Part shown: in pieces, positions 3,028 to 5,882 of the stretch | Position numbering within the stretch: the first letter of the stretch is position 1 | Layout: each line of letters opens with the position of its first letter | From: Candidatus Omnitrophota bacterium | GTDB taxonomy: Bacteria > Omnitrophota > Gorgyraeia > Gygaellales > Profunditerraquicolaceae | Direction: 5' to 3' | Length of the DNA stretch: 64,000 nucleotides | Assembly (NCBI GenBank): GCA_041649115.1 | Contig: JBAZNT010000008.1 | Location: 7,121-71,120, forward strand | Made by a program: the position numbers and the translations under genes | Notes under the pieces: model-generated | Told to the model about the DNA's origin: nothing | Databases searched by the model: none | The model's input: the letters and a program-made list of their open reading frames with translations, nothing else

Positions 3028-4106
3028 CTTGATACCTCCGTTGTAGGATAATCAATGACGTAATTACGCACCCCCTGTTCAATCGCCTCCGCTATCTGCT
3101 GGCGGTAATAGCTGTTCTTAAGCATGCGTTCCTCAGTGGTATTAGAAAGAAAGCCCACCTCCGCCAAGACTGCCGGCATGCGCGCACCGCGCAGGACGTG
3201 GAAATTCGCGCTCTTTACACCCAGGATGCGGCAGTCAAGCTCGCGCTCCATGGAACGGGAAAGAGAACCGGCCAGTTCAATAGATTCTGCGCGGTCATAA
3301 GTATAAATCATATCCCAGAGTATCGCATTAAGGCGGCCGGAATTTCCGGCAAAACAACTTCTTGTGAATCCCGGGCTTACGCTCTGCGCAGTGCTAAAAG
3401 CGCGCTTGGCATCGTTAATCTTGGGCGTGATGTAATATACCTCAAATCCGCTCAAGCTGCGCACGCGGTTAGCATTGACGTGTATGCTGATAAAGAGGTC
3501 GGCTTTGGAATTATTGGCGATCTCCACCCGCCTGTTAAGGGAGATAAAGGTATCGTTGGAGCGCGTCATAACGACCTCAAAGCCGTCCTGCTTCAGCAGC
3601 CGGCTGAGGCGCTTGGCAATGTCAAGGGTCAGGACCTTCTCGCGCACCCCTGTCCTTCCTATTGCGCCGGGGTCAGTGCCGCCGTGGCCGGCGTCTATTA
3701 CAATTTTCTTAAACCGTGTCAGGGGGACAGCCCTCGCCTGACGGGAAGGCTTCTCTTCCTTAAAAAGCACGTCTATAATCTGTTCCTTGAATTTATACGG
3801 GACGACTATCGCGCCCCGGTAAAAATCAACGGGATAGCGCATATGCTGCGCAACGCCGTCAACCAAGACAAGCCTCTCCCCCACCATCAGGTTCAGACGG
3901 TGCGCATCCTTGGCGAGGCTTATCGTCCTGCTGTAAGAATCATATTCCCATTTTATCCCGCGCGAGTCGCAGAGCGCTGAAAGCGGCACATAAGCTACCC
4001 CGTTTATGCTGTAGCTGGGCAGGCCTCCGCGGCCGGGAATAGTGGCGCAGCCGGCAGCGAAAACCGCCAGGATAAACGCCAGGATTATGATTTTAGATGT
4101 CTTCAT
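3024..4106 (-). CDS. N-acetylmuramoyl-L-alanine amidase (Amidase_3 family) lipoprotein
   Basis: 360 aa with a lipobox LAVFAAGC. The C-terminal domain carries IVIDAGHGGTDPGA, ISIHVNA and EVGFLSN motifs. Confidence 0.85.
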   Translation of the reverse strand: MKTSKIIILAFILAVFAAGCATIPGRGGLPSYSINGVAYVPLSALCDSRGIKWEYDSYSRTISLAKDAHRLNLMVGERLVLVDGVAQHMRYPVDFYRGAIVVPYKFKEQIIDVLFKEEKPSRQARAVPLTRFKKIVIDAGHGGTDPGAIGRTGVREKVLTLDIAKRLSRLLKQDGFEVVMTRSNDTFISLNRRVEIANNSKADLFISIHVNANRVRSLSGFEVYYITPKINDAKRAFSTAQSVSPGFTRSCFAGNSGRLNAILWDMIYTYDRAESIELAGSLSRSMERELDCRILGVKSANFHVLRGARMPAVLAEVGFLSNTTEERMLKNSYYRQQIAEAIEQGVRNYVIDYPTTEVSS

Positions 4107-4114
4107 ATCTTAAA

Positions 4115-4149
4115 GGGGCGCTGCCTAAAAAACAGCGCCCTGTTTTATT
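4115..4149. terminator. GC-rich hairpin immediately after the tmRNA 3' end (terminator-like, usable on both strands)
   Basis: GGGCGCTG (4116-4123) pairs with CAGCGCCC (4133-4140) across a 9-nt loop. The tail is TGTTTTATTT on the plus strand and a weaker CTTTAAGAT on the minus strand. The amidase ATG begins 10 nt after the hairpin on the minus strand. Confidence 0.5.
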
Positions 4150-4166
4150 TGGTGGAGGTGGCGGGA

Positions 4167-4828
4167 CACTTATCTAGCCGTTATCCGGCCAGCGTGGACT
4201 ATCTCTTCACCCGCCAGAATTTCTGGCAGGGCCCGGCGTATTATAGAAGGCATATATTTACCGTTGGTTTAGTTTCCTGATCTGCGCCACCAAACGCATC
4301 TTTTTGCTTAACATCGCCGGCGTATATTTACCAGCGCGATGCGTTACAGATTTGTATTTTTCTACTAACAAATCTACCTGCGGCTTCTTTACGATCAGAT
4401 ACCTTCTTATTTCGCTGAGAAAGCGAAGGCTCCTATCCTGGCATATATACCAAGCATAAGAATCGCTGTGATGAGGCTTGTTCTTTTTTTTGAAACGATA
4501 ACTCCTCCGCCAACTTTAGCCTTAAGCCACTTAAGCAGAACAAGGCTGTTGTTGGCAACAGATACATACGGAGTAGGCGTTTCATTATTATGGTGCCTCA
4601 TCAGAGTTACCGTCCCTTCGCCATCTACTATGCCAGCGATGTAAGATTTCTCGGCCTCTTCCAACGGTATCACCTCCTATCTCCCCTAAAGAGAGGAAGT
4701 CTCTGCAGGGCTTTCACCCCTCAAGGTTGCCCTCGCCCTACTGCATTTTAAAAAGCAGTTACGTTAGGGTTTCCCTGATTAAGCCGGGTTTATCATCCCG
4801 GATTACTCCGGGAGTCGACCCTTACTTG
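4167..4828 (-). mobile_element. Group I intron inserted in the tmRNA T-loop
   Basis: The upstream exon ends in U, which can pair as U:G in a P1 helix UCGAU/GUCGA (intron nt 10-14). Also present are a P4-like CAGGG...CCCUG, an R-like GCAGAGACU and an S-like GAAGAGAUAGUCC (P7 AGACU/AGUC). The last intron nucleotide is G, and a LAGLIDADG ORF sits in a peripheral loop. Confidence 0.8.
4258..4673 (-). pseudogene. LAGLIDADG homing endonuclease gene, single-motif type, interrupted by a -1 frame change at an A8 run (4484-4491)
   Basis: Frame 1 (GTG at 4673) gives MIPLEEAEKSYIAGIVDGEGTV...GGGVIVSKK, containing a LAGLIDADG motif. After the A8 tract the -1 frame reads KNKPHHSDSYAWYICQDRSLRFLSEIRRYLIVKKPQVDLLVEKYKSV...KLNQR and stops at 4260-4258. 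The two parts combine to ~138 aa, the size of a homodimeric LAGLIDADG enzyme. Confidence 0.7.
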
Positions 4829-5359
4829 ATCGAACCCGCGTCCTTAAGCATCCAGATAAAGGTCGCTTCATGCTTAGTCCCGTAATTTATCTTACTGCCG
4901 CGCCTCCTACGGAACAGGATTCGCGACAGGCAGCCTTTAAAAACTCTCGCCCCTGCCTCAAGGCATGGCAAAGAGCCAGTCTACTATAGTGCTCTACTGC
5001 GCCTTGTAGACCCGGCGCAAAGAGGCTCCCTTAATATTAGTTAAGGGAGACTGGGGACAACCCCAACGGCATTGTCATTGGTCTTGCGGCCATTGACATT
5101 GCCATAGGGCTATCAACAAACAGTGGTCTGTTTGCGTTTATTTTTGCAAGGATTGTTAACGCGGCCAACCCTGCGTCCGCGGCATGCTACCTTTACCCGA
5201 CGTACCTAAGTCGAGCCCATTCACCCCCGTCGTCACTCGCTGTTGCTGATTCAAGGGTTGATTTTCAAAAGAACGCTATTGGCTGTATCTAAAATATCGG
5301 AATTTCTGTATTTGCTTTTGTTTCTGCTTTTCCTTGCATGCTAACTACTGCCTTCCCGG

Positions 5360-5423: not shown

Positions 5424-5882
5424 TTACCTGATGCGGCGGTTCTTCAGCAGCCGCCTGAAGGAACGGTCTGAGTCGCGCTTCTTGATATCTTCCCTGCGGT
5501 CGTAAAGCTTCTTGCCTCTGGCCAACGCCAGCTCTATCTTGGCATAACCGCGCTCATTGAAATAAATCTTAAGCGGCACCAGCGCAAACCCGCGCTGCGC
5601 CATCTGGGATTCTAATTTGTTGACCTGCCTCTTATGCAGCAGGAGCCGGCGCGCGCGCGTAGGGTCTACGTTAAGATAACTTGCCTGCTCGTAAGGGCTG
5701 ATGCGCACGTGATAAAGCATCACACCCTGCGGCTCGACCCGCGCAAAGCTATCCTCGAGGTTTACCCTGCCGCCCCGTATCGACTTTACCTCGCTACCCT
5801 TTAATTCTACCCCGCACTCCCACGCCTCGATGATCTCGTAATCGCGAAAGGCCTTGCGGTTCGTAGCGATGATTTTACTCAT
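5424..5882 (-). CDS. smpB: SsrA-binding protein
   Basis: 152 aa with a SmpB-like sequence (NRKAFRDYEI, GSEVKS, basic C-terminal tail). Adjacent to the tmRNA gene. Confidence 0.9.
   Translation of the reverse strand: MSKIIATNRKAFRDYEIIEAWECGVELKGSEVKSIRGGRVNLEDSFARVEPQGVMLYHVRISPYEQASYLNVDPTRARRLLLHKRQVNKLESQMAQRGFALVPLKIYFNERGYAKIELALARGKKLYDRREDIKKRDSDRSFRRLLKNRRIR

Follow-up and report, generated by a model that had tools for sequence, protein, structure and literature searches.

A group I intron with a frameshifted LAGLIDADG gene in the T-loop of an Omnitrophota tmRNA gene

Introduction

Can a transfer-messenger RNA (tmRNA) gene still supply a working tmRNA when its 3′-end lies several hundred nucleotides beyond the rest of the gene, and what is the DNA that separates the two parts? 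The question is raised by a 64,000-nt stretch of DNA from a Candidatus Omnitrophota bacterium (the window, to which all coordinates refer), in which the sole ssrA gene seen breaks off within its T-loop. The original prediction for this locus was a tmRNA gene split in the T-loop by a 662-nt group I intron with a LAGLIDADG open reading frame (ORF). This is borne out by exons that rebuild a tmRNA, by a covarying P1–P9 structure in the intervening sequence and by family matches. We consider it very probable that the gene is the recognised intron form of ssrA, with a group I intron predicted to self-splice and leave a functional tmRNA, and that this intron is a mobile element whose endonuclease gene is decaying.

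A tmRNA gene divided within its T-loop

All features of the tmRNA locus lie on the minus strand, where the coordinates originally proposed for its parts were confirmed together with the 662-nt gap and the adjacency to smpB. Exon 1 (5228..4829, 400 nt) begins at 5228 with GGGGGTGAATGGGCTCGAC and ends at 4829 with ...GGACGCGGGTTCGAT. It comprises the acceptor 5′ strand, PK1, the tag frame, PK2-4, the T-stem 5′ strand and T-loop nucleotides 1–6 (UUCGAU). The missing 3′-end of ssrA, TCCCGCCACCTCCACCA, is exon 2 and lies at 4166..4150, exactly 662 nt beyond exon 1. It supplies T-loop nucleotide 7 (U), the T-stem 3′ strand (CCCGC), the acceptor 3′ strand (CACCUCC) and ACCA. The intron between the exons (4828..4167, 662 nt) has C as its first base and G (4167) as its last, and the whole intron-containing gene measures 1079 nt.

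Joining the exons in silico across the 4829/4166 junction (...GGTTCGAT↓TCCCGCC..., the arrow marking the intron site) gives a complete 417-nt tmRNA with a tag frame and a CCA end. As had been proposed, its T arm reads GCGGG-UUCGAUU-CCCGC and its 7-bp acceptor stem carries the G3:U pair. At the insertion site, an intron-less ssrA reads ...GGTTCGATTCCCGCC..., which is the presumed homing target. The tag reading frame, as given by ARAGORN on the spliced sequence, runs from the resume codon GCA to UAA (5037..5135) and encodes ANRPLFVDSPMAMSMAARPMTMPLGLSPVSLN; ARAGORN labels this tag 'not identified'. tmRNA tags in this Omnitrophota clade (L004-L054 and the window; L numbers designate loci and assemblies throughout) are unusually long, at about 22–33 residues, and end in N (...FAN, ...LN, ...FN), not in the common ...LAA. 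Since the tags of the relatives are likewise long and N-ending, the odd tag of the window is typical of the lineage and no sign of decay.

Standard annotation tools were predicted to report this ssrA as missing or truncated, and they do. ARAGORN calls no tmRNA in the window or in the excised unspliced locus, and finds the complete 417-nt tmRNA only once the exons have been spliced in silico. The Rfam tmRNA model RF00023, originally suggested as a check, matches 5221..4807 with 112.6 bits (gathering threshold 47), the acceptor 3′ strand being absent from the match. The corresponding check with the group I intron model RF00028 succeeded in part. At the gathering threshold of 50 bits there is no match in the window, nor in the relatives L015, L028 and L052; permissive thresholds give an end-to-end alignment (4838..4174, model positions 1-253) with 24.7 bits and E 7e-4. 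The RF00028 seed consists of 12 sequences, none of them bacterial, and the cut-off used by tFind is 20 bits. A permuted or two-piece tmRNA was also considered and rejected, with RF04321 scoring just 14.9 bits.

Two patterns recur across this intron lineage: RF00028 at its gathering threshold misses every tested member (L015, L028, L052 and the window), and RF00023 reports the intron-split tmRNA genes without their 3′ exon. Both the intron and the full tmRNA will be under-called by automatic annotation. A separate oddity is the 491-nt ssrA of one relative (L030:587-1077), with an extra insertion in its body and an 8-nt T-loop (TTGCGATA). Its RF00023 score is just 96.7 bits, ARAGORN does not call it, and the insertion is not an intron of this family.

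Structure and covariation of the intron

We aligned 30 intron cores, that of the window and 29 others, with the ORF interior removed and with 12 nt of exon 1 and the whole of exon 2 kept. Run unguided, RNAalifold found the T stem that exon 1 and exon 2 form across the intron, together with the helices P1, P2, P3, P4, P5, P6, P7.1, P7.2 (in two parts) and P8. With the P7 pseudoknot and P9 added to these helices, we obtained an explicit P1–P9 model of 74 counted pairs, in which the core helices P3–P8, including the P3/P7 pseudoknot, and P1, P2 and P9 are all present. Modelled partners pair in 96.3% of cells, compared with 37-52% when the 3′ partners are slid by 1–3 columns. Compensatory changes on both sides were seen at 36 of the 74 pairs, and none of 500 shuffles attained any of the five observed measures. 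In the window copy, all 74 of the 74 modelled pairs are standard. The halves of the T stem also covary across the intron (GCGGG/CCCGC versus GGCGG/CCGCC, 10-11 sequences).

The intron (4167..4828) is inserted between T-loop nucleotides 6 and 7, known as position 7 (UUCGAU↓U). In P1 (4815..4833), exon UCGAU and the first intron base, C1 (4833..4828), pair with the guide GGUCGA (4820..4815). At the 5′ splice site the U.G pair is kept in 30 of 30 sequences, and the last intron base is the G at 4167, in agreement with the U:G pair and terminal G noted originally. The +1 pair of P1 changes from C-G to U-A in 12 sequences, and in L090 an exon UUCAAU is matched by the guide GGUUGA (G-C to A-U). The P2 hairpin (4796..4813) is closed by a GUAA tetraloop and has compensatory changes at 7/7 pairs. 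The 5′ strand of P3, CCCGGC (4783..4788), pairs with GCCGGG (4237..4232); this helix is paired in 100% of cells, with four of six pairs compensatory.

The P4-P5-P5a-P6 domain occupies 4707..4778. P4 had been read as CAGGG...CCCUG, which proved wrong: covariation gives UCAGGG/CCUUGA (4778..4773 with 4726..4721), and the CCCUG belongs to P6 and J6/7. Eleven sequences show a G-C to A-U switch in P4, and GCCCUG is invariant. P5 (CCC/GGG) has three counted pairs, to which a fourth, U-A, could be added by eye (CCCU/AGGG). P5a (4758..4741) is absent in L015, and P6 is formed by GGGGU-GAAA-GCCCU.

The R element with the P7 5′ strand, GCAG[A]GACU (4698..4706), matches the RF00028 consensus and pairs with AGUCC in the S element UGAAGAGAUAGUCC (4196..4209), which contains J8/7 and the P7 3′ strand. 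The sequence G[A]GACU/AGUCC, with a bulged A next to a G-C pair, fits the expected guanosine-binding site, and its five pairs are invariant. The proposal that R and S elements form P7 is thus consistent with the model consensus; covariation is silent on it, as it is on P6, since both helices are invariant in the 30 sequences.

Downstream of R lie the P7.1 hairpin (4681..4696), which is present in both short and long forms and has two of three counted pairs compensatory, and a two-part hairpin of the P7.2 type that encloses the ORF (4243..4680). Both stems of P7.2 covary, with 98% of cells paired and compensatory changes. Its outer stem pairs AUAGGAGGU (4680..4672) with GCCUUCUAU (4251..4243) and is replaced by AUGGGCG/CGCCCAU in GC-rich relatives. 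Its inner stem pairs CCGUUGG (4667..4661) with CCAACGG (4267..4261). P8 (4210..4230) has six of seven pairs compensatory. The P9 hairpin CUGGCCG-GAUAA-CGGCUAG (4174..4192) is followed by AUAAGUG to the terminal G at 4167; all seven pairs are standard in the window, and five of seven are compensatory in the family. The P9 count (70% paired) understates the pairing, because in the MAFFT alignment members with a pentaloop and members with a tetraloop have their 3′ strands offset by one column. The subgroup of the intron is probably IA3.

Other assemblies of the locus and strain comparison

The same arrangement was found in other assemblies. L001 is 100% identical to the window over the whole locus. 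For L205, from a different run, identity is 99.95% over a span that starts at tmRNA position 59 and takes in the intron and exon 2; for L206, another assembly, it is 97.06% over nearly the same span. Among the samples with this population are those behind ERZ27247363, SRR8542065 and ERZ27315056. As independent assemblies reproduce the region, the split-gene arrangement is not due to chance.

Between the window and L206, all eight substitutions in the intron 5′ core fall within the peripheral P5a, where compensatory changes rebuild the hairpin. The tag frame and its stop are kept, with one S to G change. This pattern of compensatory core changes and a kept tag frame, together with the T-stem covariation, is what would be expected of a gene that is spliced and used, as far as the sequences can tell. 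Divergence across the compared region (3931-5154) is uneven. In the block 4150-4682, made up of the ORF, the 3′ part of the intron and exon 2, 5 of 533 positions differ; for exon 1, the 5′ core of the intron and the flank downstream the figure is 31 of 691 (Fisher p = 2e-4). The 4150-4682 block may have undergone recombination or gene conversion recently.

Homologous introns in tmRNA genes

Four Omnitrophota relatives without an ARAGORN call carry DNA homologous to the intron of the window, and in L015, L028 and L052 it lies at the same place (...UUCGAU↓intron...G↓UCC(G/C)(C/G)CC...). A metagenome scan with the conserved 19-nt S element TGAAGARATAGTCCAYGCT as the pattern, combined with the genome loci, yielded 41 complete introns in tmRNA genes, all at the same site; 38 of these are unique, that of the window included. 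Ten unique introns are short and ORF-less (249-344 nt), and 27, among them that of the window, are long and ORF-bearing (631-698 nt). The 38th (L177, 620 nt) is a rearranged variant. In viral contigs the pattern had three matches, none of them in a tmRNA gene.

The rearranged arrangement recurs. L031:4490-5520, L182 with the same layout, and L177:1615-2650 each have an uninterrupted ssrA with a 6-nt T-loop (GGCGG TTCGAT CCGCC) that lacks exactly the base at the intron site; ARAGORN calls none of the three genes. About 85-100 nt past each ssrA follow P7.1, P7.2 with an intact 134-aa LAGLIDADG ORF, P3′, P8, P7′, P9 and a second copy of exon 2, which is intact in L177 and degenerate in L031 and L182. 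P1-P6 are absent in all three. The arrangement looks like a free-standing endonuclease gene beside an ssrA allele that is possibly immune to cleavage.

Two further observations concern the surroundings of this lineage. In L099, L100, L101, L118, L131, L146, L166, L185 and L200, tRNA 3′ halves are preceded by the same S element and P9; these are group I introns of the anticodon loop whose core is related (R element, P4 and a short hairpin like P7.1/7.2). Among loci L003-L061, TTCAATT is the usual T-loop of Omnitrophota ssrA genes that lack an intron, and intron-bearing ones have TTCGAT↓T, except L090, with TTCAAT and a compensating guide. This difference may reflect a target preference of the endonuclease or of P1.

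The LAGLIDADG endonuclease gene and its decay

The intron ORF (4258..4664, minus strand) is flanked by the 5′ strand of P7 and the 3′ strand of P3 and, past P7.1, occupies the terminal loop of the P7.2 hairpin. One LAGLIDADG motif, YIAGIVDGEGT, is present in the protein, which in intact family members is about 134 aa long. When a profile built from 16 family proteins was searched against the Protein Data Bank, all matches were LAGLIDADG homing endonucleases, with I-MsoI aligned over its full length at E 3.7e-5, and PF14528 was matched by 16 of 16 family members (best E 1.4e-7). The window protein alone scored 16.3 bits against PF14528, below the cut-off of 22.5. The repaired window ORF had no Pfam match at E ≤ 0.01, and two intact homologues of the ORF had none in NCBIfam.

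The original prediction thus had the family and the peripheral location of the ORF right; it overlooked a frameshift in the ORF. Frame 0 starts at UUG (4664) and stops after 85 codons (4409..4407), because one base is missing at an A8 run (4491..4484); the homologous C-terminal part is encoded in the −1 frame and closes with UAA (4260..4258). The run is one base shorter than in the intact members L175, L015 and L120. The same A8 is present in L205 and in L206, 3% diverged, which makes the deletion a real inherited mutation, not a sequencing error. In both the window and L206 the −1 frame after the shift is a stop-free stretch of 75 codons. The two ORFs differ by only five substitutions, which renders a test of synonymous against non-synonymous change in the post-frameshift ORF uninformative.

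An intact ORF of 134 codons (135 in L175) is carried by 23 of the 27 long-form introns. In L120 and L161 there is merely no stop at the expected place, and L108 and the window have true frameshifts. Among short relatives, the ORF is partly deleted in L181, L094 and L155 and entirely lost, with the hairpin retained, in L114, L103 and L107; all six keep P7.2 and remnants of the first and last codons. The relatives therefore form a complete decay series of intact, frameshifted, partly deleted and ORF-less introns, and the most economical reading of the window ORF is an early stage of endonuclease-gene decay.

The translation signals of the ORF lie inside the stems of P7.2: the outer stem (4680..4672) contains the Shine-Dalgarno sequence AGGAGG, and the inner stem (4667..4661) contains the conserved UUG start, with a partner strand whose end lies immediately ahead of the stop. 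In the folded ribozyme, initiation of translation should thus be blocked, which suggests that folding of the intron may repress translation of the endonuclease.

Neighbouring features

The gene for SmpB, the protein partner of tmRNA, lies directly upstream of ssrA (5424..5882, minus strand; 152-aa ORF; PF01668, E 1.3e-54). Among species-representative genomes, its product is closest to Omnitrophota SmpB (67-68% identity), and a standard ssrA directly follows smpB in most close Omnitrophota relatives. Right after the CCA end of ssrA, a GC-rich inverted repeat (4112..4142, minus strand), read by eye, is a possible terminator; it was not called in a consensus scan for terminators.

Comparison with known group I introns

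The original prediction knew of Clostridium botulinum as the only precedent for a T-loop intron in tmRNA, a view that is now outdated. The intron form is one of three standard forms of tmRNA genes (PMC11915505, 2025), known from 883 unique sequences in 21 phyla, each of which has its T-psi-C loop interrupted by the intron, the majority at position 7, the site first known from C. botulinum. Eighteen position-7 intron forms are listed for Omnitrophota, and typical of the class are a G partner for the −1 U and a G as the last intron base (PMC11915505). LAGLIDADG genes were found in 36 of the 883, the P7.1 region being the location of 19 of the 23 founding endonuclease genes, and the second-longest reported gene measures 1116 bp (PMC11915505). 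Membership of the tmRNA_intron class is defined by at least 150 bits with the authors' covariance model, which Rfam does not include, and a length of at least 500 bp (PMC11915505). An earlier preprint had counted 343 intron-form genes. According to a 2026 survey, 6% of bacterial group I introns are in tmRNA genes, whose short 3′ exon escapes Infernal.

The window gene, at 1079 bp well over 500 bp and near the top of the reported length range, shares with this class the host gene, the site UUCGAU↓U, the −1 U paired with G in P1, the terminal G, a LAGLIDADG gene in the P7.1 region and the phylum Omnitrophota; it matches the intron-form class on every tested defining feature. It stands apart in having an endonuclease gene, as only about 4% of catalogued cases do, and in the frameshift of that gene. 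The founding report of a tmRNA T-loop intron is said to be that of Williams in 2002, on C. botulinum. That intron follows the same CGAU at the end of its 5′ exon as the window intron does and is cited as previously shown to self-splice; it is 287 nt long and is not reported to contain an ORF, whereas the window intron has 662 nt and an ORF.

Bacterial tRNA anticodon-loop group I introns, whose classes were mapped by Williams (2020, bioRxiv 10.1101/2020.01.27.920355), have the same S element, P9, R element and P4. They also share the short P7.1/7.2-like hairpin and are recovered by the same 19-nt pattern, but they occupy the anticodon loop instead of the T-loop, have other exon sequence in P1 and, where observed, are ORF-less. 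Because the S element, P9, R element and P4 are shared, the lineage of the window intron falls within the known family of bacterial tRNA and tmRNA group I introns.

The encoded protein resembles the homodimeric LAGLIDADG enzymes I-MsoI and I-CreI in its single motif, its length of about 134 aa and its location in an intron, and its family profile aligns with I-MsoI over the full length. The similarity is distant, as the profile E-value indicates; its host is a bacterial tmRNA intron, not an organellar rRNA intron, and the window copy is frameshifted. The phage T4 td intron with I-TevI is different again, with a GIY-YIG endonuclease, an ORF in the P6a loop and a protein-coding host gene.

Discussion

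How, then, could the divided gene yield a tmRNA? On the preferred reading, ssrA would be transcribed as a precursor of about 1079 nt, in which the 662-nt intron would fold into P1-P9 with the P3/P7 pseudoknot and excise itself by two guanosine-initiated transesterification steps. The first cut would fall after the U of the U.G pair in P1 (after 4829) and the second after the terminal G (4167). With the exons ligated, the T stem, the acceptor stem and a 7-nt T-loop (UUCGAUU) would be whole again, and the predicted product is a 417-nt tmRNA, chargeable with alanine and working with SmpB in trans-translation. The intron would be a mobile element. In the relatives, homing is presumably driven by the endonuclease through cleavage of ssrA alleles that lack the intron; in the population represented by the window its gene appears to have been inactivated by the 1-nt deletion in the A-run. 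The folded ribozyme may repress translation of the endonuclease, the Shine-Dalgarno sequence and the UUG start both being tied up in P7.2.

Several points weigh against this reading. Splicing is deduced from DNA sequence, and the 64 kb in view leave room for a second, uninterrupted ssrA elsewhere in the genome. The RF00028 score of the window intron is under the gathering threshold, at which its relatives are missed too, P6 and P7 are invariant, and the potential for P10, as read from the sequence, amounts to only 2 bp. It is nevertheless very improbable that the intron is a relic unable to splice and that this copy of ssrA is a pseudogene, with trans-translation lost or supplied by a copy outside the window. 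The sub-threshold score, the limited view and an endonuclease gene already in decay would all suit a relic. A relic is hard to reconcile with a window copy in which every modelled pair is intact, with changes between strains that are compensatory and peripheral in the ribozyme, with exons that retain the tag frame and T-stem complementarity, and with an intact smpB next door. Moreover, ORF-less relatives keep the ribozyme, so that loss of the endonuclease gene need not mean loss of splicing. An assembly chimera or misjoin might be suspected in a metagenome assembly; it is hardly credible here, where L001, L205 and L206 have the same arrangement, as do dozens of homologous loci, and where the boundaries follow group I rules exactly.

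A different doubt concerns the ORF only, namely that the endonuclease might still be made because ribosomes shift to the −1 frame, or transcription slips, at the A8 run (UCA AAA AAA AG). The run forms a slippery X XXY YYZ heptamer with a GGAGG-like sequence about 10 nt upstream, a layout that resembles dnaX. The recoded product would read ...VSKKKNKPHH..., exactly the family pattern, the C-terminal part is still open in the −1 frame for 75 codons in both strains, and the frameshift persists across 3% strain divergence. Set against this, none of the 23 intact relatives uses a shift, and the upstream GGAGG simply encodes a conserved GGG motif and is also present in the intact L175. The five ORF substitutions between strains are too few to show selection, and decay, with its later stages seen in relatives, is the expected course for homing-endonuclease genes. 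None of the observations points to recoding in particular. We regard it as unlikely, and as decidedly unlikely the fuller proposal that the frameshifted gene is alive, with programmed −1 frameshifting or slippage on A8 adding a recoding step to the sequestration by P7.2. If true, recoding would explain why the shift is kept in a 3%-diverged strain while the downstream frame stays open.

Under the preferred reading of a spliced intron with a decaying endonuclease gene, the window locus is one more well-supported example of a known gene form. It opens no new question, as the class, the site, the location of the endonuclease gene and the phylum have all been described already. What it adds to the catalogue description are minor points: the frameshift shared between strains, the sequestration of translation signals predicted for P7.2, the decay series, the uneven strain divergence and the recurrent rearranged variant.

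For Omnitrophota, calls of genome completeness or of 'missing trans-translation' can be wrong unless intron-aware tools are used, because ARAGORN overlooks the ssrA of the window and the Rfam match to it lacks the 3′-end; this annotation pitfall for intron-form ssrA has already been stated in the literature. For the introns themselves, the relatives of the window locus cover all stages in the decay of a homing-endonuclease gene within a single lineage of introns.

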